Shown here piece by piece: positions 5,501 through 48,544 of a stretch of DNA of 64,000 nt. The notes beneath the pieces were generated by a model. The model saw only the letters and a program-made list of their open reading frames with translations. It did not search any database and had not been told where the DNA came from. The stretch spans positions 145,776-209,775 of the forward strand of contig JAPPAR010000011.1 of assembly GCA_026705445.1 (NCBI GenBank). The letters are read 5' to 3'. Made by a program: the position numbers and the translations under genes. Numbering within the stretch: the stretch's first letter is position 1; each line of letters begins with the position of its first letter. The stretch comes from Candidatus Dadabacteria bacterium (GTDB taxonomy: Bacteria; Desulfobacterota_D; UBA1144; Nemesobacterales; Nemesobacteraceae).

Positions 5501-7778
5501 TTTCAATGAGAGTGCCGGCACGTCCAATATAAGGGTGAATCTAAATCCGGCGGCGCCTTCAGGCGGACTCACGCTTAGTTACACTGTTACCGGCAGCGCG
5601 ACAGCGGGCAGCGATTATACCATCCAGAGCTCGGGCTCGGTATCGGTCCCCGCCAACGCGGCCAGCGTGAACATCCCGGTGGTCATCATCGACGACAACA
5701 TGGACGAGAATAACGAGACGGTAATCCTGACGCTCACAGACAACGCCGACTACGACCTTGGCAGCACAACCATCCACACGCTGACCATCATTGACAATGA
5801 CGATACACCAACAACTCCCTCTTCGGGTGGAGGAGGTGGCGGTTCTTCTCCCTCCTCAGCGCCAGTACCGGTAATAAACATAAGCGGAGGGGAAGGTGTA
5901 GATGAAGGAGAGACCCTTGTATTCACCATAAGAACTGAAACATCCGTAACCCAAGATACACAGGTAAAAATAACAGTAGAGCAGACAGGAGAGTACACGG
6001 AAACAGGAGAGAGAACGGTAACGATAAAGGCAGGGGATAAAGAAGCAGTCTATGAAGCAGCAACAACAGACGACAGCATAGATGAACAGGACGGAGAAGT
6101 AACGGTAACAGTACTCTCAGGCACAGGGTATGAAGTGGGTGAGGCAAGCAGCGTATCTTTAGAAGTAAGAGATAACGACCAAGCGGGTGTAAAGGTATCT
6201 GAAGTATCGGTAAAGGCCCACGTGGGAGGCAGCGTGAGTTACGGTGTTGCGCTTACCTCAGAGCCAATCTCTGAAGTAAGAATCAAACCAGTTCCAAACA
6301 ACAGTAATGTAGTGAAAGCAAGTGAAGTACTGGTTTTCACAGAGAAGAACTGGAATGAAGAACAAAGAGTAACTCTGACAGGGTATGAGCATGGCAGTAC
6401 AAAAATAGAGCATGAAGTAACCTCAGAAGACAGTATGTACGCAGCTCTTGAGCCTATGCCCGAAGTAGAGGTTGATGTGGAAGACACAGAGATGATAAGG
6501 GGAGCGGGACAGTGGCTTGGCAGGTTCGGCAGAACAGTTGCGGAGAGAGTGGTTGAAGCGGTGAGCACAAGGATGGAAGGCGGAAGAGAAGGAGGAGTAG
6601 AGATAGCGGGAGGGTATCCCGTTAAGAAAAGATCTGAAGGTATATGGGAAGAACAGGAGCAAAGAAGCACAGAAGTAGAAGATGTACTGCTTGGAAGTTT
6701 GTTTGAAGTTGGAAGAAGAGACTCTGCAGTGTTCTGGGCAAATGCACAAAGAAGCAGTTTTTCAGGAAACAACGCAAGTTTCACAGGAGATGGAGAGATA
6801 ACAATGGGAATGGGAGGAGTTGACTGGGAGGGGGAGAGTTTCCTTTTGGGGATAATGATAATAAGAGCCAATGGAGATGGGGAGTACGGAAGCAATGAAG
6901 TGGAGAGCTATCTTACCGCAGCGGTTCCTTACGCCGGGGGCAGGATAACGGATAATCTCTCAGTGTGGGGAGCAGCGGGAGCGGGAGTGGGGGAGATGAG
7001 AGTGAAGACGGAAGGAAGTAGCAGATGGAGTACGGACATAGGGTGGAAGATGGCATCCGGGGGGATAAGGGGAGATATAGTAAAAAGAGAAAGACTCGGG
7101 CTTGCGCTTGTGTCTGATGTGCTCTGGGCAAGGAGTGAATCAGAAGATCTTATAGACGATGTAAGCGTAAGCAGGATAAGGGCGGGAGTGGAAGGTACGT
7201 GGAAAGCAAGACTGGGAGAGAATGCGTTATTCATACCAAGAGTGGAAGCAGGGATGAGAAGGGACGGGGGAGACGCAGAGAGAGGATTCGGAGCAGAGCT
7301 TGGCGGAGGAGTTAAGTTAACTCACACGGATATAGGATTAACGCTTGATATAGGTGGCAGGGGAGTTGTATCACATGAGGACGGAGGGTTCGAGAGCAGA
7401 GGAATATCAGCTTCACTTGAGTGGGAGAAGGAGATGGGAGGCAATGGACCATCTTTGGCACTGAGACAGCAGTGGGGAGAGCCTGAATCAGGAGGGATAG
7501 AGTCACTTTTTTATGACGGAGGATTTGAGGAAACCGAGATATCATCGTATGCAAGCAGATTAAGCGCGGAAGCGGAGTATGGATTTACGGGTGAAGGCAT
7601 GAGGCAGTCTCCGTATGTGGATTACGGGCAGTGGGAAGAGGGAAGGGACTATGCATTGGGGTGGAGGGTATCTACGTTAAGCGAGGATGTGTCGGTTGAC
7701 GTAAACGCGACCAGAAGGGAAAGCGAACAGACAGATACTGAGCATGGAGTCGGAGTAAGGCTTGATGTGCGGTGGTAG
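2508..7778 (+). CDS. giant modular surface protein (1756 aa) with signal peptide, cadherin-like (He_PIG/dystroglycan-type) domain, repeated Calx-beta modules and an autotransporter-like C-terminal beta-barrel
   Basis: The start is TTG/GTG. The signal peptide is RLRRGLFSVLLSIPVLAGFTGEAQA|Q. The IPDQTATVGTMFSYQFP...DADNDSLTYSA...LPTWLTF...RTFSGTP motif is a cadherin-like repeat. Two ~75 %-similar Calx-beta-type modules occur (VQFAAASSNPAESAGTSNV... at ~4690 and VQFASNSSSFNESAGTSNI... at ~5470), each ending ...HTLTI(A/I)DNDD, with a third Calx-like module at ~5870-6180. The C-terminal ~430 aa are Gly/Arg/Glu-rich with alternating patterns and end ...HGVGVRLDVRW, an aromatic terminal residue typical of a type V beta domain. 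Confidence 0.8.
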   Translation: MFSRVGVRPYACRLRRGLFSVLLSIPVLAGFTGEAQAQVSPATVTPNFVCQGETKDLAISGTAPFSIVNYSVGSNSAGTRGTDWKALNSDGTERTQNNIIRLTGLSGTYSTTLRVQNISADGTITLTAFNASTITIYFRSSTHADCAATDGVTVSETTLALTELGTSSTIKKTYTMKLDTDPGADVTITVSNGDATAVEVDTDSGMAGNQNTLTFTHGNAGNWGTTQTVTVRALNDGDAANETVTLTHAATVTNTSNPYHGIAISDVTVTTADAGHGVIVSEVSLSVAENDDTGTYMLRLKSQPGGTVTITATSSMTSKATVNGPFSFNNSNWDTDKTVTVTGKDDGSSTISHRVTGPTANYPTSTTIPSVSVTVTAVNNVPTVANAIPDQTATVGTMFSYQFPTSTFNDADNDSLTYSALKSDGSALPTWLTFAPNNRTFSGTPQSTETVSVKVTADDSNGGSVSDTFDIVVSAAPTLPVITIAPKSNAAITEGGNAVFTVTADTAPSSNLAVKLTVEDAPNSDFVSSANEGTGKTVTITSGSTTADFTVATVGDSADEPNGPVKVTVTNGTDYTVGSPSSASITVNDNDATSVTLTGNTDAVNEGATKTFTVAIGRGLYNGEKLAIPLSFAGQATRGTSGDYTLACASTTGVTCASMNSGTATVTFTGPNTGQSATSVTITLTARSDGTTESGGETVDIGLGSVTATGTTATTTDSFGQFTINDPPAAPVVQFAAASSNPAESAGTSNVMVNLNPAAPVGGLTLTYNVTGTATAGSGNDFTIQSSGTLSVSVGDTTAMIPVVINDDSVDDDDETVVLTLTPGTGYTLGSTTVHTLTIADNDDPPATPTLSVSISPTSANEGNSGSAYATVTITLSESRSQTTEFKACLGASSTATRGATADYQLVNFGNDDPLSLTNGCHDYTISATKTQSQVRLLIRGDTDVESNETIVVELRDPPQGVLISSTDGSATYTILNDDTGTTPPTTPVVQFASNSSSFNESAGTSNIRVNLNPAAPSGGLTLSYTVTGSATAGSDYTIQSSGSVSVPANAASVNIPVVIIDDNMDENNETVILTLTDNADYDLGSTTIHTLTIIDNDDTPTTPSSGGGGGGSSPSSAPVPVINISGGEGVDEGETLVFTIRTETSVTQDTQVKITVEQTGEYTETGERTVTIKAGDKEAVYEAATTDDSIDEQDGEVTVTVLSGTGYEVGEASSVSLEVRDNDQAGVKVSEVSVKAHVGGSVSYGVALTSEPISEVRIKPVPNNSNVVKASEVLVFTEKNWNEEQRVTLTGYEHGSTKIEHEVTSEDSMYAALEPMPEVEVDVEDTEMIRGAGQWLGRFGRTVAERVVEAVSTRMEGGREGGVEIAGGYPVKKRSEGIWEEQEQRSTEVEDVLLGSLFEVGRRDSAVFWANAQRSSFSGNNASFTGDGEITMGMGGVDWEGESFLLGIMIIRANGDGEYGSNEVESYLTAAVPYAGGRITDNLSVWGAAGAGVGEMRVKTEGSSRWSTDIGWKMASGGIRGDIVKRERLGLALVSDVLWARSESEDLIDDVSVSRIRAGVEGTWKARLGENALFIPRVEAGMRRDGGDAERGFGAELGGGVKLTHTDIGLTLDIGGRGVVSHEDGGFESRGISASLEWEKEMGGNGPSLALRQQWGEPESGGIESLFYDGGFEETEISSYASRLSAEAEYGFTGEGMRQSPYVDYGQWEEGRDYALGWRVSTLSEDVSVDVNATRRESEQTDTEHGVGVRLDVRW

Positions 7779-7873: not shown

Positions 7874-7951
7874 TGGCGTCCCCGAGGGGATTTGAACCCC
7901 TGTTACCGGCGTGAAAGGCCGATGTTTTAGGCCTGACTAGACGACGGGGAC
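7874..7951 (-). tRNA. tRNA-Glu (anticodon UUC)
   Basis: The minus-strand read GTCCCCGTCGTCTAGTCAGGCCTAAAACATCGGCCTTTCACGCCGGTAACAGGGGTTCAAATCCCCTCGGGGACGCCA folds as a cloverleaf. The anticodon stem is TCGGC/GCCGG, the loop is CTTTCAC and a CCA end is encoded. The gene sits just upstream of gltX. Confidence 0.8.
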
Positions 7952-7960
7952 GGCAAGAAT

Positions 7961-8028
7961 TGAGCCGTACAGGATTCGAACCTGTGACCCTTAAAAGGCA
8001 GTTGCTCTACCAGCTGATCTAACGGCTG
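7961..8028 (-). pseudogene. degenerate tRNA-Lys(UUU)-like element lacking the 3' strand of the anticodon stem
   Basis: The minus-strand read is CAGCCGTTAGATCAGCTGGTAGAGCAACTGCCTTTTAAGGGTCACAGGTTCGAATCCTGTACGGCTCA. The D arm, T arm (ACAGG-TTCGAAT-CCTGT), CTTTTAA anticodon loop and GGGTC variable loop match tRNA-Lys. The 5 nt that should pair with ACTGC are absent, position 1 mispairs (C:C), and there is no CCA. Total length is 68 nt. Confidence 0.4.
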
Positions 8029-18039: not shown

Positions 18040-19062
18040 ATGAGATTCGGCATCGGACTCTTCAGTATGCAGACCCACAAGGATCTTGACTACAGTCATG
18101 TGGATCTTTACAGAAATTCCCTGGACCACGTGAGACTTGCCGAAACGGTGGATTTCGATTCGGTATGGCTTTCCGAGCATCATTTTCTTGAGGATGGATA
18201 CTGCTCTTCCCCTCTTGGGATGGCCGCCGCGATGGCCGCTGTGACCGAGAGAGTGAGAATAGGCACGGGAGCCCTGATACTCACGCTTCATAACCCGGTG
18301 AGAGTGGCCGAAGACGCCGCCACGGTCGATCTCATTTCCGGCGGAAGATTCGATCTGGGAGTCGCGATAGGATACAGAAAAGAGGAATTCGAGGGGTTCG
18401 GAGTCCCGATGACGCAAAGACCCTCGAGAATCGAGGAAGGAATAGAGATAATCGAGAAATGCTGGGAAGAAGGGTCTTTTTCCTATGAAGGCAAGAGGTT
18501 CAGCTTTCGGGACATAGACGTTACCCCCAAACCCGTGCAGAGACCCATACCCATATACATAGGAGCTTTCGAGGAACCCGCCGTGCGGCGGGCCGGGCGC
18601 CTCGGGTACCCACTTCTTATCGGCCCCGGCAGGACGGTTCCCATGATAATGGATACCCTCGGGTGGTATAACGACGAGGCGGAAAAAGCCGGACGCGATC
18701 CGTCAGGAGCGGAGCACATACTGCTTCGGGAAACTTACGTGCGTGAAACCATGGAAGAAGCCACTGCGGGCGGAACCGAATACATAATAAACATGTACAG
18801 GTTCTACCTGAGCCTTGGGGTCAAGATAGTGATACGGGGAAAAAACATAACCGATCCTGACGACCCGTTTTTTGAATACATGGCGGAAGACCGTTTTATG
18901 ATCGGCACCCCCGGGCACTGCGTCGAAGAAGTGAGAAAGTACGCTGAGAAAACCGGAATACAAAACATAATGTGCAGGATGGTGTTTCCCCAGGCCTCCG
19001 CGGAAGTTATAGCGCATTCAATCGAGCTTTTCGGAAACCAGGTGATTCCCGAATTCAGATGA
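18040..19062 (+). CDS. LLM-class (luciferase-like) flavin/F420-dependent oxidoreductase, paralogue
   Basis: Pattern is FGIGLFS...AETVDFDSVWLSEHHF. It is divergent from the LLM gene at 16875. Confidence 0.8.
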   Translation: MRFGIGLFSMQTHKDLDYSHVDLYRNSLDHVRLAETVDFDSVWLSEHHFLEDGYCSSPLGMAAAMAAVTERVRIGTGALILTLHNPVRVAEDAATVDLISGGRFDLGVAIGYRKEEFEGFGVPMTQRPSRIEEGIEIIEKCWEEGSFSYEGKRFSFRDIDVTPKPVQRPIPIYIGAFEEPAVRRAGRLGYPLLIGPGRTVPMIMDTLGWYNDEAEKAGRDPSGAEHILLRETYVRETMEEATAGGTEYIINMYRFYLSLGVKIVIRGKNITDPDDPFFEYMAEDRFMIGTPGHCVEEVRKYAEKTGIQNIMCRMVFPQASAEVIAHSIELFGNQVIPEFR

Positions 19063-19176
19063 CGGATGCTCCGGCATGATAGGAAGCTGCCCGCTTACCC
19101 GAATCGCCGCCCCGGCAGGCTTGACTGAGCCTCGATTTTTTGCGTAAAGACAGCTTCCTGAAATCCGCCGGATCTG

Positions 19177-21114
19177 CTAACGAACCGCAGATATTCCGGA
19201 AATCATGCTGAACCCCGGAGATGAAAAACCGAAAACATTTTCGTAATCCTTGTTGAACAGGTTGTTTACCCTTGAAAACAGCCTGATTTTTTCAACAAAC
19301 CTTTTCACGCTGATTTCGTAGGAAGCCGCGGCGTCAACAATGAAAAAAGAATCGTTTCTGACTCTGGTACCTGGAAACATGCTCCAGTTGACATCCTCCC
19401 TGCTGCCTACGTAGTTTCCCGAAAGGCTGAGGTCAAAAACATTTTTTGAATATCCCGCGTTAAACGAGAACGAATGCTCGGGTATACGTATGAGTTTTTC
19501 TCCCTTCGAAAAAGCCGCGGACCCTGCTCCGCCGTCGTCAGTTACCTCCGCGTCGGTGTACGTATAGCCGGCACTGAGGGTCAGGCAGTCGTTCGGATAC
19601 AAGCTGATTACGCCCTCGACTCCCTTTGACTCCGTGCGGTTTATGTTTTCGTAGTTGGTTCCGTTTTCAAACGGGGTGCCGTTGTAGGCGATCATGTTTT
19701 TGAACTTGTTGCGGAAAAAGGAAAGATCAAGTTCGACCGCACCGTCAAGAAGACGCTGCCTTGCGCCTATTTCCGTGGTTAATGTTTCTTCGGGTTTGAG
19801 ATCGGGGTTTGGTATCGTGAAACCGCCAAAATCGCTGAAATTCTCATGGAAAGTGGCTTCCTTGATTCCCCCGCTTGCCCCTCCCCTTATCTCGGTTCCG
19901 CTCTGCCCGATTTTCCATCTGGCGAAAACACTCGGACTCCACTTGCCTCCGAAGGCTTCGTTATCGTCATACCTTACGCCTGTTGTGACAAAGAGGGTCC
20001 TCAGCAGATCAAGGTGGGTCTGAGTGTAGAAAGCGTAATTTTCTCTTGATTTGTCAAGAGGGTCTGCCTCAAAGTTCTCCTTTTCGTATTCAACTCCGCC
20101 TGAGGTTATGGTTGAGAGCTGGTCAAAGTCAACAAAAAAGCTGGAGCTGTATTCAAACGATACCCTTTTGTCGAGAGTCTCGGATGGGGATGCCCCGAAT
20201 GATCCCTCGGGTTCCGCGGGTCCGTCATAGTTCTCCCTGTCAAGCCTTGTGTAACCGATCTTAACAGAGTTTTCCCACCACTCGGTTGCGGAGAACAAGA
20301 TGTCAAAACCCGTAACGAGCGATTTGCTCCTTGTGCCGCTGTCCGGGTCAACCGGATCAAACCTGTCTCCCGCACTTCCGGTCGGAAATTCAAAATCGGA
20401 ATCCCTGTATATGGAGAAAAACGAGAGATCGAGATTGTCGGCTGCCTCAAGGTTCAGGTTTGCCGTGAAGCTGCGGTTTTTGTAATCGTTGTTTACCTCC
20501 AGAATTCCCTCATCGATGATTCTCTGGTGAGAAAGGAAATAGTCAAGCTTTTCAAGGCTGCCGGATAAGCTTGAGGAATGCTCAAGGATCATCGCGTCTT
20601 CGGCGCGGAATCCCAGTGCAACGGAATTTGTTTTTCTTGCTTTTCCGCTTCCGCGCTTCGTTATTATGTTTATAACGGAAGCCGCGGCGTCAGAACCGTA
20701 AAGAGACGAGTGCGCTCCCTTTATTATTTCTATTCTCTCTATGTTCTCGGTGGTAAGGGAAGAGATGTCAAAACCTCCCCCGGCCTGGTTTATCTGGACG
20801 CCGTTAATCATAACGAGGTTATGATCCGACTGTCCTCCTCTGGCGAAAATAGATGTGACGCCGCCGCGACTTCCCGAGCGCACCACTTTTAACCCAGGAA
20901 CCCTCGAAAATATTGACGCAATGTCCTTCTCGCCGCTTCTCTCAATTTCTTTCCTGTCGATAATGGTAACGGTGGAACCGAGACGGTCAGCGTCAATCCC
21001 GGTTTTTGTTCCCGTAACTATAATTTTCTCTAGTTCGGTTTCCTCCGAAAAACCCGCGGAAGGAAACAGAACCAGGATCAAAACAAAAGCGAAAAACATC
21101 CTAAGTCTGTTCAT
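19177..21114 (-). CDS. TonB-dependent outer-membrane receptor, probable corrinoid (BtuB-like) transporter
   Basis: It has a signal peptide and a plug domain (IIVTGTK...VPGLKVV...GGQSDHNLVMINGV). The start is an ATG behind GGAGG at 21114, and the cobalamin riboswitch lies immediately upstream. Confidence 0.85.
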   Translation of the reverse strand: MNRLRMFFAFVLILVLFPSAGFSEETELEKIIVTGTKTGIDADRLGSTVTIIDRKEIERSGEKDIASIFSRVPGLKVVRSGSRGGVTSIFARGGQSDHNLVMINGVQINQAGGGFDISSLTTENIERIEIIKGAHSSLYGSDAAASVINIITKRGSGKARKTNSVALGFRAEDAMILEHSSSLSGSLEKLDYFLSHQRIIDEGILEVNNDYKNRSFTANLNLEAADNLDLSFFSIYRDSDFEFPTGSAGDRFDPVDPDSGTRSKSLVTGFDILFSATEWWENSVKIGYTRLDRENYDGPAEPEGSFGASPSETLDKRVSFEYSSSFFVDFDQLSTITSGGVEYEKENFEADPLDKSRENYAFYTQTHLDLLRTLFVTTGVRYDDNEAFGGKWSPSVFARWKIGQSGTEIRGGASGGIKEATFHENFSDFGGFTIPNPDLKPEETLTTEIGARQRLLDGAVELDLSFFRNKFKNMIAYNGTPFENGTNYENINRTESKGVEGVISLYPNDCLTLSAGYTYTDAEVTDDGGAGSAAFSKGEKLIRIPEHSFSFNAGYSKNVFDLSLSGNYVGSREDVNWSMFPGTRVRNDSFFIVDAAASYEISVKRFVEKIRLFSRVNNLFNKDYENVFGFSSPGFSMISGISAVR

Positions 21115-21269
21115 TACTAGCTCCTCCAAGTGCTGGCAGACAGCTTTCCCCGAAAGAGCGGTTAAATGAATGAGTACATAGGGCGGAAAACGAAAACTGC
21201 GCGAACGCGCCGGAAAGAAAAAATATGTTTTTAATCGCCATACGCCTAACTCCCGAGGCAAAGCCACTA

Positions 21270-21475
21270 TAGATTGACGCAGGCAGGTCTTCCGACTTAA
21301 AGGGCTGCCTGTTATTGAAACAGAGCGACTTTTCCGGATACGGTCTTCCCGGCTGTGTTGAAGCCAGTGACCCGAAACGCAAGCACGCTTCGCATGGGCA
21401 CCGAAAAAACCCCTTATTACGGCTGCGGGAACAGTTCGGGACTCTCACCCGATTCCCTTAACCTGAATCTAAATA
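21270..21475 (-). promoter_or_regulatory. cobalamin (B12) riboswitch in the 5' leader of the TonB-dependent receptor
   Basis: The minus-strand RNA reads ...GGUUAAGGGAAUCGGGUGAGAGUCCCGAACUGUUCCCGCAGCCGUAA...GGUCACUGGC...AAGUCGGAAGACCUGCC. These are the conserved GGGAA/GGUG..UCC/CCCGC..GUAA core and the B12 box (AGYCMGGAAGRCCUGCC). Confidence 0.8.
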
Positions 21476-21533
21476 TAACTATACAACTTAGTAGTGGGGG
21501 TGTCAAAAGCCCCAAGTCAGCGGGAAGGCGTAA

Positions 21534-38049: not shown

Positions 38050-38433
38050 TTAAAGTGCTGGGTCCAATATATGTTGTTTTAAAGAAACATCAACAGAATT
38101 TTTATCCTTCTTCGATAAACATCCTAGTCGTCTGATAATCATCGATTTTTCTAACGTAAAGAGTTTTAAGCGCACTACCGACGGCACTGCTAAATTGGCG
38201 TCGGCGGGGTCTTTGAGTTTGATATCGCTTTGCCAAGAACTACGCTTGGCGGTTGTGACCATCGCTAAAATCAATTGATCGTGGTTTTCATTGAACTCTT
38301 CGGATGATATAACCAAAGCGGGCCTGCGCTTTTTAACAGAAGAATCGGTAAAGGGGAAAGAAACAACTACAATATCATGGGGTTTAAAGGTTACGCCATG
38401 CATCTTCATCCTCATCTGATAGCCATTCCTCAA
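38050..38433 (-). CDS. MazF/PemK-family toxin (mRNA interferase)
   Basis: The pattern DIVVVSFPFTDSSVKKRRPALVIS matches PemK/MazF. The true start is probably one of the internal Met (M7/M9/M11), and it overlaps the upstream antitoxin. Confidence 0.7.
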   Translation of the reverse strand: MRNGYQMRMKMHGVTFKPHDIVVVSFPFTDSSVKKRRPALVISSEEFNENHDQLILAMVTTAKRSSWQSDIKLKDPADANLAVPSVVRLKLFTLEKSMIIRRLGCLSKKDKNSVDVSLKQHILDPAL

Positions 38434-38608
38434 GGTTTGAAGAAATGCTATCCAAATAAGTGTCTTTAGTGGGCTTGAGCTTGGTTACAATAACACGGTC
38501 TCCGTCTAACTCGAAAACAAGCTTGTCACCTGTTTTAAAGTGTGCGGCCTTACGCAATCCATGAGGAATAGTGACTTGGCCTTTCGAAGTGATTTTGGAA
38601 ATTTCCAC
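38384..38608 (-). CDS. AbrB/MazE/SpoVT-family antitoxin
   Basis: The start is GTG behind GGAGG. The ISKITSKGQVTIPHGLRKAAHFKTGDKLVFELDGDRVIV stretch is a swapped-hairpin (SpoVT/AbrB) domain. The acidic C-terminus is typical of antitoxins. Confidence 0.7.
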   Translation of the reverse strand: MEISKITSKGQVTIPHGLRKAAHFKTGDKLVFELDGDRVIVTKLKPTKDTYLDSISSNLEEWLSDEDEDAWRNL

Positions 38609-38720
38609 AACAACGTACCTCCTTACATGTAAGGATAACAAGGAAGCGAAAATATGCAAGGACATCGAAAACAGTACGACACTACTGAAATGGTAGCAGC
38701 AGTCTCGCCTCCAAGGCTGG

Positions 38721-40337: not shown

Positions 40338-41090
40338 CTAAGTTCGCAAAGGCTGATGAGCACAAACTTTTTTCCTTGAGTTTTTCTTTTTCAGTATTTG
40401 TTGTATCTGTTTTGCGAGTTCTTCCGGCACCTTTTCTTCTTTTCCGAGTGAAAGAAGCAACCTGAAAAAATCATTCTTTAGGGTGTCTTTTGAGTGATGT
40501 CTATGAAGTTGCAACAAAACTTCACTGTGACATTCTCGAACCTTCAATCTGCTTTTGCAAGGGCAGGGAAGATGGCCACGGTAGCCATACTCGAAAAGAA
40601 AAGCGAGCATTGTTAATATGTTGACATGACTACCTAAGCCCAGATCATCTCTGTAATACTCAATAATTCCCTCAACACCATGTGCACGCTCGCCAAAAGG
40701 GTGCTGGCCGTACTTTTTCCAATAGCAGTAACCGTATAAATATGGAATAACTAGATGATTTACGAACCCGAGTAAGGACTCTTGTTCTAGGAAAAACAAG
40801 CGTTTCTCAATTGGGGTAGCCAGACAGAGGGTCCCATCTTGATTCAGGTGTTCATAGTTTTGGTCGATTTTTCCACCTATTTCTCTTACAACCGGAAGAA
40901 CTTCTGGGTAAGCACTGGGAATAGCAAGTTCGATGTCAAAGCAGTCTGTAATCACTGGGAACCCATCGAAGGACGCTTCAAACGAAAGAGGACCTTTTAT
41001 AACTGTTTTCCGGTTCTGAAGAGATATATCTGTAAGGCCTCTATGAGTTTTTTTTAATTCGCAAATTTGGCTTCCGACCTTATTCTTCAT
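40338..41090 (-). CDS. E2 (UBC-fold)-like protein, Cap2-short-type CBASS accessory, with a Cys/His-rich C-terminal extension
   Basis: The UBC-like pattern is ...GPLSFEASFDGFPVITDCFDIELAIPSAYPEVLP...YEHLNQDGTLCLATP (compare HPN...G.ICL). The extra ~90 aa carry CPCKSRLKVRECH...HRHH. The low-GC context is shared with the two upstream genes. Confidence 0.55.
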   Translation of the reverse strand: MKNKVGSQICELKKTHRGLTDISLQNRKTVIKGPLSFEASFDGFPVITDCFDIELAIPSAYPEVLPVVREIGGKIDQNYEHLNQDGTLCLATPIEKRLFFLEQESLLGFVNHLVIPYLYGYCYWKKYGQHPFGERAHGVEGIIEYYRDDLGLGSHVNILTMLAFLFEYGYRGHLPCPCKSRLKVRECHSEVLLQLHRHHSKDTLKNDFFRLLLSLGKEEKVPEELAKQIQQILKKKNSRKKVCAHQPLRT

Positions 41091-41094
41091 TCAT

Positions 41095-42294
41095 TTAGTT
41101 TCTCCATGGCTTTCGTGGTCTGGAAATATGAATCTTCGGTGGGCTTTCGATTTCTCTAGGTGGTACTATCTGTTCCAAATTTCCCAGCACGGGTACACTG
41201 CCTAAAGCAGAAGTAAGAGTTCTTTGGACTTCATTTCGGTTATCTTTACCCAATATATCAACCAGATCTTCTTGTAGACACCTTAACCACATGAAGAAAG
41301 CCTCCGCTCTAGCATGATTATCTTCGTGCCACCTGTCTGCAAAGTTTTCCTCTGGATTAACCGGATTGCCTATATACCACTTCCCATCGGGAGTCCTCTT
41401 TATGGGGCTAATTGACTCTAGGGTTGGTTCAAGTGCTCGACCCTCAAACAGCGCTACGTGTGCACTTAAACTGGCCACGATGTTCTTCAGAGCGGAGTAA
41501 ACATCTGATTCATTTCGATAAAAATATGCGGAGAGGGTTGTAATAATTATTGAGATTGGAGCATAGTCAACACGCTCTGCATTATTGAACTTAATATCAC
41601 GGTGACGCTTCATAATTTGAATCGTGCGTTGAAGAGGGGTACGTACCAACTGATCTGGTACATCTTCAATTTTTGCATATATCTCGGGCACTCGATTTTG
41701 AATAAATTTCTTCTGCTCAGCATATACGAGGTCGAACGCAGGCTTGTTCCGGCCATCAAACCATAGACCATACCCTTTAGGGTCGCTTATTGACCATCTA
41801 TAGAGGGAAAGAAATTTATTTGTTATTGCAATTGCTGTATTCAGATAGCCTTTTGGATAAGGGACTGATGGCAGAACATCTAAGTGAAAACCTACATTGT
41901 CTTCCTCAGAGTATATTAGAGTCCAGCACCTCTTGCCTTCCTCATCTAGCATTCTCTTATACCTGTCATGTTCTTTTAGCCTGTCACCGACTAACTGCTT
42001 TACGTACTCAGGCTTGGCCCACTCTTTTAGCAAGGGGATTTCGCACACAAGATCAATGTCATAATCTGCTTCAATACCGTTCCTTATTGGTCTTGTGACT
42101 GTGCCTAACCGAAATGAACCTTGTGGATAGATGTCTAACCCAGAATCACAAGATCCGGGGTAATCTCCGCCTTCCAGCCATTTTGCAACAGCTTGGTAGC
42201 GCTCGACAGCATCTTTGTACTTGACCGGGGAAATATCTAGGTCCCCTGCAACTTCGTTTAAAAAGTTAGAATATCTAGCTTCATCAATTCTCAT
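41095..42294 (-). CDS. cGAS/DncV-like nucleotidyltransferase (CD-NTase)
   Basis: The Pol-beta-type NTase motif is GSFRLGTVTRPIRNGIEADYDIDLV (GS...[DE]x[DE]). At ~400 aa the length is typical, and it is sandwiched between a patatin and an E2-like gene. Confidence 0.75.
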   Translation of the reverse strand: MRIDEARYSNFLNEVAGDLDISPVKYKDAVERYQAVAKWLEGGDYPGSCDSGLDIYPQGSFRLGTVTRPIRNGIEADYDIDLVCEIPLLKEWAKPEYVKQLVGDRLKEHDRYKRMLDEEGKRCWTLIYSEEDNVGFHLDVLPSVPYPKGYLNTAIAITNKFLSLYRWSISDPKGYGLWFDGRNKPAFDLVYAEQKKFIQNRVPEIYAKIEDVPDQLVRTPLQRTIQIMKRHRDIKFNNAERVDYAPISIIITTLSAYFYRNESDVYSALKNIVASLSAHVALFEGRALEPTLESISPIKRTPDGKWYIGNPVNPEENFADRWHEDNHARAEAFFMWLRCLQEDLVDILGKDNRNEVQRTLTSALGSVPVLGNLEQIVPPREIESPPKIHISRPRKPWRN

Positions 42295-42296
42295 TC

Positions 42297-43304
42297 TTAA
42301 TCCTCCAACTTATAATATGGTTTGAAAGCTTCTACTGGTTTGTCGAAAAATATAGCTTCGAGGCTGGGTTGCCAGCTTCGCCCCTCGGAGTGGCCGAGTC
42401 CTTTTAAGTCTTGTATGGTCTTTGTGTCGTCCATTTTATAGGTGTTATATGGAACCGTCTGATTTACTCTGTATATAGCGGTACGTTCATGTTCATGACC
42501 CGTTAACAGTTTTGCGATACCCATAGCCCCCTGGGACTGTCCGTCCATGAATAGGTTAATAATTCTTGAGTTAAGCGTTCCGAGACCAGCGCGTTTTGGT
42601 ATATTGTACGCCTCCTGCAGACACCCTAGACTTAAGACGCGAAGCGACTCTCTTGGCCAGTTCAGCAGGGAGATGGCCTCAACAACAGCAATCGCTACAG
42701 GATTGTTTGCCCATATACCGCCGTCAATGAGGGCGACACCATGCTGTGTAACGTGTTGCTTGAAATAGGAAGGAGCTGCTGATGTCGCCATAGCTACATC
42801 AACTGCGCTTGATTTGTAATCTGTTTTTAGCCGAGGATGATGTGCTGTTTTATAGATATAGACGGAATTAGCAACCGGATTCCAAGCTGGAATAAGTAAC
42901 CGGGTTTTTGCTTCACCGATGCGTTTTTCCCCAAGCACATCATGAAGAACAGCTCGGAGAGGTTCAGAATTATACTTTCTTAGAAAACACCATTTAACTG
43001 CTCGGATTTTCCTGAGGAGAAAATTCAGAAACGGTCCATTATTTTTACCAAATACCTCATAACTTCTGTTTTCGTAAAAATTCAATAGTTGCGATGCTGA
43101 AACTCCCATGCTGAGACCAAGCGCAATGATTCCTCCTGTGGAACTTCCCGCAATTAGGTCGAAATACTTTCCAATAGGGTGATCAAGGTGTTTTTCCAGT
43201 TCAGCAAGAAATGCCGCAGGAAAAGTACCGAGGACTCCCCCTCCGTCAATACATAGGATTCGTTTTTTTGCTATTCCGGTATTTTCTTTCTTAACCCTGT
43301 TCAA
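42297..43304 (-). CDS. patatin-like phospholipase (CapV-like CBASS effector)
   Basis: The oxyanion motif is DGGGVLG, the nucleophile elbow is GSSTGG (GxSxG), and the catalytic Asp lies in ...IDGG... Confidence 0.85.
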   Translation of the reverse strand: MNRVKKENTGIAKKRILCIDGGGVLGTFPAAFLAELEKHLDHPIGKYFDLIAGSSTGGIIALGLSMGVSASQLLNFYENRSYEVFGKNNGPFLNFLLRKIRAVKWCFLRKYNSEPLRAVLHDVLGEKRIGEAKTRLLIPAWNPVANSVYIYKTAHHPRLKTDYKSSAVDVAMATSAAPSYFKQHVTQHGVALIDGGIWANNPVAIAVVEAISLLNWPRESLRVLSLGCLQEAYNIPKRAGLGTLNSRIINLFMDGQSQGAMGIAKLLTGHEHERTAIYRVNQTVPYNTYKMDDTKTIQDLKGLGHSEGRSWQPSLEAIFFDKPVEAFKPYYKLED

Positions 43305-43526
43305 TTTTTCTTCTTGCGATCTTTGTTATTAGGTGCAACAGTAAAAAATACTTGAAAAAGGTCCCTGTTTCTTTTATAATGTTGACTGTTACAAGCTACA
43401 TATTTTATTCTAAGGAAGTTATTTTTTTATTTTGTTTTAGCAAGCTAGCGCAGCATGTTGCCTAGTACAGACAACAGAATAATTGATCTTTTTTGCTTGT
43501 CAAGAATTTTCTCAAAATAATATAGA

Positions 43527-43910
43527 ATGTCTTTTGGTTATGCTTTGAAAAAGTTTCGTGAAGGGCGTGGTTTAACCCTTCGAGAGCTTGGGAAACTGTG
43601 TGGAATAGACCATACCTATATCCATCGATTGGAAAAAGAAGAAAGGACTTCCCCATCGGAAGAAACTGTCGACTCTCTCATTAATACACTCAAGCTCCGT
43701 GGACGCAAGGCTCGCCTGTTGCGTTTTCTTGTTGGACAGACAGTCAGTGACCAGCTTGTTGAAGTCTTTCTAGAGGATGAAGAACGCCCCATAGAAATTT
43801 TTGAGTCTTTGGCCTTCATGAGCTTCAGAGGAAAACAACCTAAAACTAAAGAAGAATGGCGCAAGTGGGCTGAACGGCTGGAAGAGTTTATGAAGAATGA
43901 GCAAAGATAA
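43527..43910 (+). CDS. XRE-family HTH transcriptional regulator (CapH-like)
   Basis: The helix-turn-helix is LTLRELGKLCGIDHTYIHRLE. It is divergent from the CBASS operon and overlaps the downstream peptidase gene. Confidence 0.7.
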   Translation: MSFGYALKKFREGRGLTLRELGKLCGIDHTYIHRLEKEERTSPSEETVDSLINTLKLRGRKARLLRFLVGQTVSDQLVEVFLEDEERPIEIFESLAFMSFRGKQPKTKEEWRKWAERLEEFMKNEQR

Positions 43911-44802
43911 AGCAAAAGAGCTTGAAATTGTTTTAAAGGCTCGCGATTTCATTAGAGAATCTGGAATAAATTCCGTGCCTGTTGATCTTAAGCGTTACTG
44001 TGCGGTTGCTAAGGCTAAAATTAAGGTTCGCTATGATCTCGATGATGAAGAATCAGGCCAGACTTTTCCCTTGAACAGTAAAAATATTATCACTGTTAAC
44101 GGTAATCATACGGAAGAAAGGCAACGATTTACAGTTCTGCACGAGATTGGTCATATTATTCTGGAACTACCCTCAAGGCATCAAAATGGTTGTATAAAAA
44201 CAACTGATTTGATCAGTTACAGGCAACGCCCAGAAGAAGAGGTCCTATGCGATATTTTTGCGGCGGAATGCCTCTTGCCGTATGATTTTTTCGAGAAGGA
44301 TATTGAAGATGTTGACATATGTCTCGATACGATAAAGAACCTGTCAAAACGTTACAAAGCTTCTATACACTCTACAGGTTCCAGGTTTGCTGCTAATTGT
44401 GAAGGGCTTTGTTCTTTTGTTCTTATTGAAGAAGGTAAAATTCGCTATGTATCCAGTTCAAAATCTCTGCGTGAACTTAAGGGCTGGATTGACATCGGTG
44501 TGCCAGTTCCTCAAAACAGCGCAGCTTTTCAACTGATCAAAAATCGATCTGAGACTGAGCATTACGATGATGAAATTCCTACTGAGATTTGGTTCAACAA
44601 TGGTATCGGAAATTACGATATGTTGTGTGAGGAAGCAATCTTTATAAAAGAATGGAATCAATGTCTTTCCATTCTTTGGTTTGATGAAAACTTGAGACCT
44701 GCAGGTGAAATCGAACCTTACGATGTTGATTATGGGGAATCGTCATTACCCAGAGAATTTGATGGAGTATTGACGTGGCCATCAAGAAGTCGGAGGAGAT
44801 AA
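43897..44802 (+). CDS. ImmA/IrrE-family zinc metallopeptidase (CapP-like)
   Basis: The HEIGH motif (VLHEIGHIILE) is followed by a downstream Glu/Cys-rich region. It is paired with the XRE HTH. Confidence 0.75.
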   Translation: MSKDKAKELEIVLKARDFIRESGINSVPVDLKRYCAVAKAKIKVRYDLDDEESGQTFPLNSKNIITVNGNHTEERQRFTVLHEIGHIILELPSRHQNGCIKTTDLISYRQRPEEEVLCDIFAAECLLPYDFFEKDIEDVDICLDTIKNLSKRYKASIHSTGSRFAANCEGLCSFVLIEEGKIRYVSSSKSLRELKGWIDIGVPVPQNSAAFQLIKNRSETEHYDDEIPTEIWFNNGIGNYDMLCEEAIFIKEWNQCLSILWFDENLRPAGEIEPYDVDYGESSLPREFDGVLTWPSRSRRR

Positions 44803-44868: not shown

Positions 44869-45942
44869 ATGTATACAGACTATACTGTTTCAGAAACAGA
44901 CTCCCAAAATTGTCCTGATAACGGAAGACACTTCTGTAGATATTTTCAACTCCAAAACAGACGGTATTTAGGAAACAAATACAAGTTACTTGGATTTATT
45001 GAGAATGTAATTTCTCAAAAGTGCGAGTCGGTAGCCTCTTTGTGTGATATTTTTGCCGGTACCGGTGCAGTTTCTGAAAGATTCAATAGTTTGGAAGTTA
45101 AAATTATTTCCAATGATCTTCTTTTTGCTAACTATGTTTGCTTGAATGCGTTTTTAGGAATTGCCGGCTACCAGTTAGCAAATATTTTTGAAAAAATAGA
45201 ATATCTTAATAGTCTGCCGAGCGATGAAGAAAACTATTTTTCGAAACACTTTGGTGGAACGTATTTCTCAGACGAGAACGCAAGGAAAATTGGAGCGGTA
45301 CGCGAGGAAATAGAAAAAATCGCGGAAAATGAGGAGGAAAGAAACGTCCTGATTTGTTCGTTGCTTTATGCGGCGGATAAGGTTGCCAATACAGTGGGTC
45401 ACTACGACGCTTTCCGTAAGAAGTTGGACATGCTACAGCCGGTAACTCTTCTGATTCCTTCTATTGACTATTCACGTAATTTGAACAACGAGATTTACAA
45501 GGAGGATGCAAACGTGCTGATTGAAAAGATTTCTTGCGATGTCTTGTATGTCGATCCACCATATAATTCACGTCAATACTCTGACGCATATCATCTTTTG
45601 GAAAATCTTGCGGAATGGAAGAAGCCCGAGGTTATTGGTGTAGGCAAGAAAATGGACCGTTCTCATATAAAGAGTGCCTATTGTCTCAAGGATGCAGCGA
45701 CCGCGTTTGCAGACTTGGTCGAAAAGGCGAACTGTAACCATATTCTGCTTTCTTATAACAATACTGGTGATTCAAAGGATGGGCGCTCAAATGCAAGAAT
45801 GAGTGATGATGAGATTCTCCAAATTCTGGATGATAAAGGAGAAATTGAAGTTTTTGAAAAGGATTACAAACCCTTTACAACGGGAAAGAGTAATGGAGAG
45901 AGCAACGCGGAACGAATTTTCTATTGCAGAGTAACGAAATAA
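44869..45942 (+). CDS. D12-class (Dam-like) N6-adenine DNA methyltransferase
   Basis: The N-terminus RYLGNKYKLL, the AdoMet motif DIFAGTGAVS and the catalytic DPPY (YVDPPYNS) are present. Confidence 0.8.
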   Translation: MYTDYTVSETDSQNCPDNGRHFCRYFQLQNRRYLGNKYKLLGFIENVISQKCESVASLCDIFAGTGAVSERFNSLEVKIISNDLLFANYVCLNAFLGIAGYQLANIFEKIEYLNSLPSDEENYFSKHFGGTYFSDENARKIGAVREEIEKIAENEEERNVLICSLLYAADKVANTVGHYDAFRKKLDMLQPVTLLIPSIDYSRNLNNEIYKEDANVLIEKISCDVLYVDPPYNSRQYSDAYHLLENLAEWKKPEVIGVGKKMDRSHIKSAYCLKDAATAFADLVEKANCNHILLSYNNTGDSKDGRSNARMSDDEILQILDDKGEIEVFEKDYKPFTTGKSNGESNAERIFYCRVTK

Positions 45943-47759
45943 TGACGAAAAAACCTTGGTCGGTTACAACAACGGTACGAAACCCCGACAGATTAAGAGG
46001 CTTTTTGGCCGTTTTGCAAGAGCTTGAAGGCTCGGATTGGAACCATGAGAATCAGAAAAAGTATCAAATTCTTCTGATTCAATCTAGGCTATACGGTTAC
46101 GGAAAACAGCAGTTTTACAACGGACTTACGGACGAACAAATTGAATTAATTGATAACCCGTCAACGGAGATTTCTTTTGAACAAGCAGAGGAGATTTTCG
46201 ATGAGAAAAATTACGAAGATCCTCCAATGCGTGGAAGACAATCATTAAACCCTTTGAAAAAGTTCGGATTTGCTGTAATCAAAAATAGAAAAATATTTAT
46301 TACGGACTTGGGAAGGTTGTTTTTACAGGATGATTTTAAAGATAATCTTGGAGAAATTTTTCTTAAAAGTTTCCTAAAGTGGCAATTACCGAATCCTGAT
46401 AGTCAAGACTATCCAAAGGACACATATTACGATGTCAAGCCCTTTGTTGCCACGCTTCATTTAATTAACAAAGTAAATCAAAAAGAAATCGATTGTGACA
46501 ACAAACCAAAAGGGCTCAGCAAACAGGAATTCTCTCTTTTTGTTCCAACACTACTGCACTACAAAGATATAGCTTTCTATGCCCAAAGAATCGTTGACTT
46601 GAGACGAGAAGGAACAACAAGAAGTGGGGTTGTTTCAGAAAGCTACAAAAAACAGTTTGCAGAGAAATTCCTGGAAACTGATAACCCCGAGGAAGTAGAT
46701 AAGCTCCTAAAAAACCTGAAGGACTATGGGGATAATACCATTCGTTATTTTCGGTTAATTCCATATGTTTACATTCATGGTGGTGACTTCTATGTTGACT
46801 TGGAGCCGAGAAGAAAAATTGAAATCGAATCACTGCTCAATCATAACAACGCGCAGACAAAAAGCTTTGAGTCAAAAGAAGAATATTTTGCATATATATC
46901 TGATATTTCTAGACCACAGCTTCCTTGGGAGACTTTTGAGAAACGTATTGAGATTATTAAAGAGCTTATTGAGAAAGTACATCAATGCGAAAGAGTTTTG
47001 CAGAAGGAAAATATAGAGATCAGGAACTACTTGAAGATGCAAAATGATGAGTTGGGAGATTACATAACGGAATTAAGGAATTACAGACGATCATTGCTGG
47101 AAGAGAAAAATCGCAAAAAATCTCAATCAGTTGAACAAATTAAGTCTTGTATTAAAAACCTGAAAAATATTCATCATTCTGAAGGCGATCGCCCGATACT
47201 ACTTGAGAAACTGGCTACACTCGGTTTACATGCACTTGATGACGCAAGGGAAATAAAACCCAATTAACCAGTCGGGGATGACAATGAACCGACTTTTACG
47301 GCCCCGGGAGATGTTCCAGACATTGAATGTTTTTATAAAAGCTTCAATGCAATTTGCGAAGTTACGATGTTAACCGGTCGGAATCAATGGTACTACGAAG
47401 GGCAGCCGGTGATGAGGCATTTCAGGGATTTTGAAGATGAGCACAAAGACAAACTATCTTACTGCGTGTTTATTGCCCCAAAGTTGCATAGAGATACCAT
47501 CAATACTTTTTGGAATGCGGTAAAGTATGGATACGAAGGGCAACGGCAAAAAATAATTCCACTTTCAATTAGTAACTTTGTTTCTATTTTAAAATCCTTG
47601 CTTGATATGAAAACGAAACAAAAATCTTTGAGGCATGAAAATCTTTCTTCGCTGTATGACCAGATATTGTCCTCTACTAATTCTTTTAGTGATTCAAATG
47701 AATGGTTGGGAAGTATCAGAGCTACTATTTCCTCGTGGCAGAAAGACATCGCTTCGTAA
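45924..47759 (+). pseudogene. large Type IIS-like restriction endonuclease gene (possibly AlwI/BstNBI family) interrupted by one in-frame TAA at 47265-47267
   Basis: The track ORFs 45924..47267 and 47367..47759 are in the same frame. Translating across the gap gives ...REIKPN*PVGDDNEPTFTAPGDVPDIECFYKSFNAICEVTMLTGRNQWYYEG..., a PD-x(n)-E-x-(K/T)-like nuclease core downstream of the stop. It is flanked by two methyltransferases. Confidence 0.5.
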
Positions 47760-47773
47760 ATGCGAGGGCAGAT

Positions 47774-48544
47774 ATGAGAACGGGGATTATATACAATGGT
47801 GATTGCGTCAAAGTGATGAGAGAGAAAATCGATGAAAAATCCATCGATTTAATTTTCGCTGACCCTCCTTACAATCTTTCTGGAAGTGGCTTAAAATGGG
47901 AAGGAAACAAAACCGGCGGCAACTGGTACATGATCAATGAAAATTGGGACAAAATGACAGCTCCTGAGTATATGCAATTTACGAGACAGTGGATCAGTTC
48001 TTGTCATAGGGTTTTGAAGGATAACGGGTCAATTTACATTGCATGCAGTTATCACAATATAAGCGAGGTGATGATTGTATTAAAACAACTTGATTTCAAA
48101 ATCAATAACGTTATTACTTGGCGCAAGACAAACGCGATGCCGAATATGACAAAAAGAGTTTTCACGCACTCAACGGAGTTTATAGTTTGGGCGGTAAAAG
48201 GAAGAGGTTGGACATTCAATTATGAAGAAATAAAGGAAATAAATCCCGAAAAACAAAAGGACGGAAGCCCCAAACAGATGCGCGACTTTTGGGAATTGCC
48301 GCTTGTACAAGGGCGAGAAAGATTGCGGGGTGAAGATAACCGTGCTTTGCACCCTACACAAAAACCGGAAGAAATGCTTAAAAGAATCATATTAGCAAGT
48401 TCTAATGAAGGCGAAGTAGTTCTTGACCCTTTTCTTGGGAGTGGGACAACGACTTATGTGGCAAGAAAATACGGTCGTAAGTGGATTGGAATTGAGCAGA
48501 ATAGTGAGTATGTAGGAATTGCTAAGAAAAGAATGAAAAAGTAA
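47774..48544 (+). CDS. beta-class N6/N4 DNA methyltransferase
   Basis: The catalytic motif is DPPYN. HPTQKP...DPFLGSGTT is the AdoMet motif in the order typical of beta-class enzymes. Confidence 0.85.
   Translation: MRTGIIYNGDCVKVMREKIDEKSIDLIFADPPYNLSGSGLKWEGNKTGGNWYMINENWDKMTAPEYMQFTRQWISSCHRVLKDNGSIYIACSYHNISEVMIVLKQLDFKINNVITWRKTNAMPNMTKRVFTHSTEFIVWAVKGRGWTFNYEEIKEINPEKQKDGSPKQMRDFWELPLVQGRERLRGEDNRALHPTQKPEEMLKRIILASSNEGEVVLDPFLGSGTTTYVARKYGRKWIGIEQNSEYVGIAKKRMKK

Follow-up and report, generated by a model that had tools for sequence, protein, structure and literature searches.

A type II-short CBASS module with divergent CapH/CapP regulators in a Candidatus Dadabacteria genome

Related systems and the composition of the module

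The canonical type II CBASS (antiphage signalling that works through cyclic oligonucleotides), DncV–CapV–Cap2–Cap3 from Vibrio cholerae, combines a clade-A cyclase of the cGAMP type with the membrane-degrading patatin phospholipase CapV, an E1–E2 fusion (Cap2), and a JAB isopeptidase (Cap3). This article describes a five-gene locus in a 64,000-nucleotide stretch (the window) of a Candidatus Dadabacteria metagenome-assembled genome (MAG; assembly GCA_026705445.1, contig JAPPAR010000011.1). In its identity and overall logic, the locus is very probably a complete CBASS abortive-infection module of the type II-short (E2-only) kind, placed under transcriptional control by CapH/CapP. It resembles the Vibrio system in having a predicted cGAMP-type cyclase and a CapV-like patatin phospholipase and, by analogy, may share ubiquitin-like regulation of the cyclase C terminus; unlike the Vibrio system, it contains neither an E1 nor a JAB protein.

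An E2-CBASS has been described from Serratia marcescens (SmCdnG–SmE2; PDB 8hsb/8yjy; 10.1101/2022.05.25.493364, PMC12948482). Herein, an E2 of ~160 aa removes the last residue of the cyclase, E407, and links G406 to its own Cys101 and then to lysines, a linkage that is abolished by both G406V and G406L (10.1101/2022.05.25.493364). The penultimate glycine is reported to be highly conserved among E2-associated cyclases (10.1101/2022.05.25.493364, PMC12948482). The majority of these cyclases belong to clade G (73.65%), and they exceed the remaining type II cyclases in length (PMC12948482). Compared with this system, the Dadabacteria E2 is longer (250 aa), carries a SEC-C-like zinc knuckle, and has no detectable sequence similarity to SmE2. 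The cyclase ends on KPW-R-N instead of ...G406-E407, a patatin lipase encoded upstream takes the place of the SAVED-fused effector plus exonuclease, and CapH/CapP are present in addition.

Among cyclases of solved structure, the one most similar in sequence (9woo, 3e-42) comes from the systems VcCdnG–Cap5 and EcCdnG–Cap2/3–Cap5 (PMC12804361, PMC12991175), which make 3'2'-cGAMP. The structure 9woo represents the clade-G CdnG of Vibrio cholerae, for which this product was established (PMC12804361). EcCdnG, also of clade G, senses proteases: cleavage of a surface loop activates the enzyme, and such loops are predicted in nearly all clade A and clade G cyclases (PMC12991175). The effector of these systems is the HNH-SAVED nuclease Cap5, unlike the patatin of the Dadabacteria locus, and their ancillary genes are either absent or comprise full Cap2/Cap3.

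CapH/CapP is a repressor/peptidase pair. Hundreds of CBASS operons of types I, II, and III, some of them with phospholipase effectors, have it encoded upstream in the opposite orientation (10.1101/2022.04.27.489752). In E. coli, CapP activated by single-stranded DNA (ssDNA) cleaves CapH between F82 and R83, which derepresses the operon (10.1101/2022.04.27.489752). Like the pair of the type III CBASS of E. coli MS115-1 characterized in that work, the Dadabacteria pair consists of an XRE helix-turn-helix (HTH) repressor and an IrrE-like HExxH peptidase, is located upstream and divergently, and has a Phe|Arg junction in the C-terminal region of CapH. The two differ in CBASS type, and a palindromic operator as proposed below is not described in the E. 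coli MS115-1 CapH/CapP paper (10.1101/2022.04.27.489752).

The five genes of the locus are:

40338..41090, minus strand: E2-only Cap2-like protein; 250 aa, with H81-L-N83, catalytic C89, and C176-P-C178...C187-H188
41095..42294, minus strand: clade-G-like CD-NTase (a nucleotidyltransferase resembling cGAS and DncV); 399 aa
42297..43304, minus strand: capV-like patatin phospholipase effector; 335 aa, TTG start
43527..43910, plus strand: capH, XRE-type HTH repressor; 127 aa; Pfam HTH_31 and HTH_3 at 1e-10, PADLOC capH at 1.2e-13
43897..44802, plus strand: capP, IrrE/ImmA-like Zn metallopeptidase; 301 aa, HEIGH at aa 82–86; Pfam Peptidase_M78 at 1.2e-14

According to the listing of open reading frames (ORFs), the patatin, cyclase, and E2 genes lie co-directionally on the minus strand (43304..42297, 42294..41095, and 41090..40338). 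The end of the patatin gene is followed after 2 nt by the cyclase gene—the adjacency of effector and cyclase that is characteristic of CBASS—and 4 nt separate the cyclase from the E2. An initial annotation, made from the sequence alone, had placed a three-gene operon at 40338–43304; these limits are exact, whereas the overlaps it mentioned between genes are absent. Its assignment to the effector–cyclase–E2 architecture of type II-short CBASS agrees with PADLOC E-values of 2e-99, 3e-111, and 4e-77 for the three proteins, which exceed chance by far. That an E1 or JAB partner is missing likewise holds, as no neighboring ORF matched an E1, ThiF, or JAB domain in Pfam, PADLOC, and NCBIfam profile scans. 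The reading was correct as far as it went but incomplete, since it overlooked CapH/CapP and their putative operator; pyk, capH, and capP neighbor the operon. None of the five genes is disrupted, and their catalytic residues are kept. The annotation by itself adds little: the combination of an E2-only CBASS and a CapV effector has already been catalogued, PADLOC holds full-length models for all three core proteins, and control by CapH/CapP is published. What the locus provides is a compact and, in all likelihood, complete regulated module from an uncultivated phylum.

A cyclase of identical sequence is on record from a Candidatus Dadabacteria MAG. The five-gene module recurs across phyla in unrelated genomic contexts. 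The arrangement of capH/capP opposite patatin–cyclase–E2 is found in homologues at 81%, 77%, and ~60% identity. It sits between isocitrate lyase and mgtE in locus L004, is followed by a second CBASS, of type I, after capP in L006, and occurs in Ca. Tenderia (L008) and Methylocaldum (L009); in L010, an HTH–peptidase fusion is present. Scanning of species-representative genomes with the E2 alignment yielded 52 loci, which span Latescibacterota, Nitrospinaceae, Rhodothermales, Binatia, Alpha- and Gammaproteobacteria, Nitrospira, Spirochaetia, Collinsella, Gemmataceae, and others. The cyclase immediately precedes the E2 in every one of them; a patatin gene is present in 38, and strong matches to both capH and capP are present in 17. 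Ten neighboring ORFs were scanned in the patatin-less loci, and nine of them encode effectors with a SAVED domain, which is joined to Saf_2TM in five cases, joined to HNH in one, and on its own in three; one ORF had no match. An exhaustive profile search collected 2,267 clusters (50% identity) for the E2 family, nearly all with the SEC-C-like zinc knuckle and 371 of them at E≤1e-30.

Effector, cyclase, and E2

The effector shows all attributes of CapV: besides the patatin fold, these are GGGxxG as the oxyanion motif, GxSxG around the nucleophile, and DG[GA] with the aspartate. The three motifs correspond to DGGGVLG (aa 20–26), GSSTG(G) (aa 53–58, with the nucleophile S55), and D194-G-G (aa 194–196) in the 335-aa protein. 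It was first read as a patatin-like phospholipase from DGGGVLG and GSSTGG; both motifs are present, and Pfam Patatin matches at 6.6e-29. The PADLOC model of the CBASS phospholipase effector is reached at 2e-99, and the protein passes the NCBIfam equivalog NF041079, "CBASS cGAMP-activated phospholipase", with 243 bits against a cut-off of 200. Its closest solved relatives in a PDB sequence search are CapV structures (~1e-31).

The catalytic residues of the cyclase are G59-S60, then, after 18 residues, D79-x-D81, and a third acid, D139 (FHLD); G59/S60, D79/D81, and D139 are invariant in 38 homologues. The GS...DxD signature by which the enzyme had been recognized is therefore present, but its spacing is x18 and not x9–13. 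PADLOC identifies an oligonucleotide cyclase (3e-111), and Pfam DncV-like_NTFase scores 30.1 bits against a cut-off of 24.9; on these profile scores, a nucleotidyltransferase outside CBASS was rejected. The DncV-type NCBIfam cGAS model scores 42.9 bits, below its cut-off of 150. In the PDB sequence search, three CdnG enzymes come first, namely VcCdnG (9woo, 3e-42), SmCdnG (8hsb, 5e-28, over residues 6–369), and BdCdnG (7ljn, 1e-12). They are followed by DwCdnB entries at E~2e-3, and no structure of clade A, C, D, or E was matched at E≤0.01. In addition, S170 (invariant in the 38 homologues) and Y175 (near-invariant) align with the lid residues S167/Y172 of SmCdnG, which contact GTP (PMC12948482). 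The clade had been regarded as unreadable from the sequence; the solved structures closest to the enzyme nevertheless point to clade G, as do S170/Y175 in the lid. The length of 399 aa and the clade-G affinity fit the long cyclases of the E2 type.

The AlphaFold2 (AF2) model of the cyclase, built from a 38-sequence alignment, is poor. Its mean predicted local distance difference test (pLDDT) is 59.7, residues 48–217 (the N-lobe) lie below 50, and the last 30 residues are modeled at ~57–59 with no β-sheet assigned. Each of the 37 best Foldseek matches of this model is a CD-NTase, with SmCdnG (E 1e-8) and BdCdnG in the lead. The model was set aside for active-site geometry, the activation loop, and the C-terminal motif; hence, the fold is assigned from the homology, in sequence, to solved structures. 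The nucleotidyltransferase fold and the active-site triad, on which the initial annotation had made its reading depend, are supported by a near end-to-end alignment with solved CD-NTases and by the invariance of the triad.

The E2 carries the motif HLNQDGTLCLATP at aa 81–93 and matches the PADLOC model of the CBASS E2 end to end (4e-77), while only the E2 part of the PADLOC E1–E2 models is matched. Pfam alone leaves the protein unassigned, with Prok-E2_B remaining below threshold (19.2 bits vs 25.4); no NCBIfam match and no PDB sequence match at E≤1 were found. The AF2 model, for which 41 sequences were aligned, is of high confidence (mean pLDDT 88.6; predicted template modeling score 0.79), and its top Foldseek matches are solely folds of the UBC superfamily—Tsg101 UEV, UFC1, and UBE2N. 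The clear UBC/E2-like core, which was the second point on which the initial reading had hinged, is thereby confirmed. Because the Foldseek alignments span ~105–129 residues, the UBC fold is assigned to the N-terminal half; no structure was matched by the C-terminal ~120 residues. All 41 sequences share H81 and C89. The possibility of a catalytically dead UEV was rejected on the invariant Cys89 and the profile scores.

At its C terminus, the E2 has a helical extension with a SEC-C-like zinc knuckle, C176-P-C178...C187-H188. The Pfam SEC-C motif is recognized in 15/41 family members, and CPC...CH is found in 119/120 close homologues. Among 150 diverse homologues, 140 contain a zinc-knuckle-like CxC...C[H/C], in its strict CPC form in 125. 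The Serratia E2-CBASS papers mention neither zinc nor SEC-C, and a full-text literature search, whose coverage leaves out most subscription-journal papers, returned nothing relevant that links SEC-C or zinc to E2-CBASS.

Regulators, candidate operator, and putative promoters

The regulator genes are located upstream of the CBASS core and divergently from it, with capP overlapping capH by 14 nt. CapP matches PADLOC across the whole 242-position model (1e-49). The C-terminal region of CapH contains SFRGxRP, which is invariant in 18/18 homologues, and the junction F100|R101 is a candidate site of cleavage by CapP. A cysteine-switch loop is reported for only 33% of CapPs (10.1101/2022.04.27.489752). 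Cys99 of the Dadabacteria CapP lies at HExxH+13 as in Thauera CapP, yet this cysteine is present in only 1/18 homologues; it is not conserved in the subfamily, a difference from the pair of E. coli MS115-1, and a cysteine switch is not claimed.

The coding regions of capV and capH are separated by 222 bp, in which the following elements were located:

43352..43400, plus strand: putative capH–capP promoter and O2; TTGAAA-17-TATAAT at 43352–43380, O2 at 43380–43400
43456..43476, no strand: putative CapH operator O1; 21-bp palindrome TGTTGCCT-AGTAC-AGACAACA (whole: TGTTGCCTAGTACAGACAACA)
43476..43503, minus strand: putative CBASS promoter, directed toward capV; TTGACA, 16-nt spacer, TATTCT; 10/12 consensus match

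O1 starts at the last base of the CBASS −10 element and covers the expected transcription start. An element of the form TTGAC[AG]-N17-TAxxxT is found at the equivalent position in L004, L006, L008, and L009. The capH–capP promoter is the best promoter match in the island (11/12) and is directly followed by O2 (TGTTGACTGTTACAAGCTACA), an imperfect copy of O1 that forms its direct-repeat partner with 73% identity; this arrangement is conserved in the same four loci. In its reduced form, TGTTG-N10/11-CAACA, the palindrome has a single match in the 64-kb window compared with 0.01 expected by chance, and L001, L002, and L004–L008 each carry one copy in the corresponding part of the intergenic region. 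The longer form, TGTTGTCy-N4/5-rGACAAC[A/G], occurs in 14/17 capH/capP-bearing loci from different phyla, ~40–50 nt from the capH start. By this conservation and its single copy in the window, the 21-bp palindrome is a strong candidate for the CapH operator. TGTTGTCy-N4/5-rGACAACA thus offers a precise candidate sequence that is conserved across phyla.

The two putative promoters, PcapH at the capV end and PCBASS at the capH end, face each other within 43352–43503, as they do in L004, L006, L008, and L009. Hence, the 5' leaders would overlap in antisense over ~80 nt, which could add transcriptional interference to repression by CapH.

In a 77%-identical relative (L006/L007, 2768–6773), a type I CBASS follows capH–capP co-directionally and encodes a 508-aa CD-NTase with an AGS_C domain and a Saf_2TM-SAVED effector. 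The regulator pair is located between two CBASS operons in this relative and may control both.

Proposed mechanism, alternatives, and genomic setting

The mode of action is proposed by homology to the characterized systems, with the E2–tail and the cyclase-triggering steps being the least certain. A CapH dimer bound to the palindrome abutting the CBASS −10, and to the weaker copy at its own promoter, would keep expression low. ssDNA arising from DNA damage or phage replication would activate CapP, which would cut CapH, probably at F100|R101, and derepress the operon. The E2 would engage the conserved C-terminal tail of the cyclase through Cys89 and thereby hold or prime the enzyme. Infection would switch on the clade-G-like cyclase, plausibly through a phage protease cutting a surface loop as in EcCdnG. 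The cyclase would then make a cGAMP-type dinucleotide, most likely 3'2'-cGAMP, that activates the CapV-like lipase (Ser55/Asp194); phospholipids would be degraded and the cell would die before phage release.

Several observations weigh against this account. At the low confidence of the cyclase model (pLDDT 59.7), neither an activation loop nor the C-terminal helix/β-sheet that recruits the E2 was visible, and both promoters are matches to the consensus. CapV is documented with 3'3'-cGAMP (PMC12480259), whereas 3'2'-cGAMP is the product of the clade-G cyclases characterized to date. The tail reads PW-R-N and thus lacks the glycine without which conjugation fails in Serratia; R follows PW in 104/120 homologues. 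Lastly, the E2 has no sequence similarity to SmE2 and is ~90 residues longer, so that the E2–cyclase step may work differently.

The missing glycine concerns the C terminus of the cyclase, ...PPKIHISRPRKPW-R398-N399. The conserved pattern is ...PKIHI-x4-KPW-R398-N399, with P396 and W397 being invariant in the 38 homologues; a PDB sequence search with the last 49 residues gave no match. In all of the 120 closest homologues, PW is followed by one of five residues (R 104, G 8, K 6, Q 1, M 1) and then by 1–3, rarely 6, variable residues. The PW-x pattern is present in 48/52 species-level loci, where the position is occupied by R in 32, by G in 6, and by K in 5, and glycine is common only among the most divergent of the 52. 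When the tail residue (R/K vs G) is compared with the columns of the E2 alignment, differences appear at positions 78 and 83, close to the active site; this comparison includes only six Gly-class loci, of which four are the most divergent, and is confounded by phylogeny. Judging from these tails, a conserved glycine is lacking across the cyclases of the whole zinc-knuckle E2 family and its absence is not peculiar to the Dadabacteria copy. The initial annotation had taken the published E2 mechanism as given, whereas the conserved C-terminal glycine on which that mechanism depends is absent here. Hence, the locus is filed under the E2-CBASS class and not under the Serratia-type mechanism. Two natural cyclase–E2 fusions, P0258 (651 aa) and P0319 (616 aa), contain PW[R/S], a linker of 10–35 residues, and an E2 domain with CPC...CH.

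A reaction between the E2 and this tail is still the most likely role of the E2, since a conserved motif with a disposable end resembles a processed tail; its chemistry may differ from the published one. The best-surviving alternative, which we regard as possible though clearly the less probable reading, keeps the system but dispenses with glycine-dependent "cGASylation" of the Serratia type in the subfamily of E2 with SEC-C. Instead, the cyclase might be conjugated via a non-glycine C terminus (Arg398, or Trp397 after trimming), or the E2 might be a tail-specific cysteine protease or a noncovalent clamp to which the zinc knuckle adds a binding surface. The PW[R/G/K/Q/M] tails are in line with this, given the loss of linkage in the G406V and G406L variants of SmCdnG, as is the retention of PW[R/S] before the linker in the fusions. 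The same holds for the structurally unmatched C-terminal ~120 residues of the E2 and for a zinc knuckle that is near-universal in the family and absent from the text of the Serratia papers. On the other hand, the UBC fold, the HxN-like His81, and Cys89 are conserved as in a thioester-forming E2, the motif followed by few disposable residues is the pattern of a processed and conjugated tail, and the glycine of some members suggests homology to the Serratia glycine. It is similarly a tentative proposal that the E2 represents a branch of E2-CBASS, very large and uncharacterized, in which ubiquitin-like conjugation proceeds via a non-glycine C terminus (Arg/Trp), should a thioester or isopeptide be formed with the tail, or in which the E2 acts as a zinc-assisted tail protease or sensor rather than as a ligase. 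If true, the mechanism of the SEC-C-bearing branch would be unlike that of the Serratia system, the sole E2-CBASS investigated to date. Most stand-alone CBASS E2 proteins are of the long form that has a zinc knuckle and is paired with a PW-R cyclase tail; this form is not the one that was biochemically characterized, and the published rule of a conserved glycine may therefore not generalize.

A second alternative concerns the target of the regulators. CapH/CapP might mainly or additionally control, in the manner of a C protein, the co-directional restriction-modification genes at 44869..48544 rather than the CBASS operon. This would suit the order capH–capP–M–R–M, all on the plus strand, where the first methylase follows capP at a distance of only 66 nt, and the weak matches of CapH to PADLOC models of restriction-modification "control proteins" (~1e-3). 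The co-directional second CBASS operon after capH–capP in L006/L007 also makes control by read-through plausible. However, the pairing of capH/capP with patatin–cyclase–E2 is kept in L004, L006, L008, and L009 and in 17 genome loci, whereas the genes past capP vary with context (isocitrate lyase, McrBC, a group II intron reverse transcriptase, a type I CBASS). Moreover, the perfect palindrome abuts the promoter that faces capV, and the PADLOC scores for capH (1e-13) and capP (1e-49) are far above those of the control-protein models. Control of the restriction-modification genes is hence considered improbable, and CapH/CapP are assigned to the CBASS operon.

A third reading, in which the defence island is decaying and the module survives as a remnant without activity, is very improbable. 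A neighboring AlwI-family nuclease gene with an in-frame TAA at 47265–47267, also seen in the independent assemblies L001 and L002, indicates that genes in the island can be lost. However, measured against their profiles, all five ORFs of the CBASS and its regulators are of full length, with every catalytic residue kept, the operator and promoter architecture is intact, and the 9-kb island is 99.98% identical in independent assemblies from separate metagenomes.

The CBASS locus lies within a low-GC defence island beside a restriction-modification system. The stretch at ~40.1–48.7 kb has a GC content of 0.36–0.45 compared with ~0.50–0.54 in the flanks; no tRNA or integrase was found adjoining it. 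The restriction endonuclease gene of the AlwI family (type IIS/nicking; 45924–47759, plus strand) retains its frame beyond the TAA (…REIKPN*PVGDDNEP…), and the same TAA is present in L001 and L002. The methylases on either side are intact (D12-class, 44869..45942; N4/N6, 47702..48544). The nuclease has probably been inactivated with the flanking methylases surviving.

The island is bordered by a pyruvate kinase gene, and just past this gene, at 38050–38665 on the minus strand, a MazE-like antitoxin of 93 aa is encoded together with a PemK/MazF-like toxin of 127 aa. In L001, a gene of the metallo-β-lactamase fold is located at 18676–19494, ~8.7 kb from the CBASS operon and past an adenylosuccinate lyase gene, corresponding to a position just left of ~33600 in the window. 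It has a weak precomputed match to the Anti-Pycsar Apyc1 family, and a similar gene lies near the module in L004, too; its proximity may be coincidental, with the gene serving housekeeping (RNase Z/Lactamase_B).

Elsewhere in the window, a cobalamin riboswitch was identified at 21265–21481 on the minus strand (Rfam RF00174, 73 bits), and a tRNA-Glu at 7874–7951 is followed by a second, weaker tRNA match at 7961–8028 that has no ARAGORN call. An ORF of 1,756 aa (2508–7778, plus strand) contains He_PIG and Calx-beta domains and coincides with the compositional outliers of the window, where the GC content rises up to 0.65 and the GC skew to ~0.39; tandem DNA repeats were not detected in this region. 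It probably encodes a large surface or adhesin protein.

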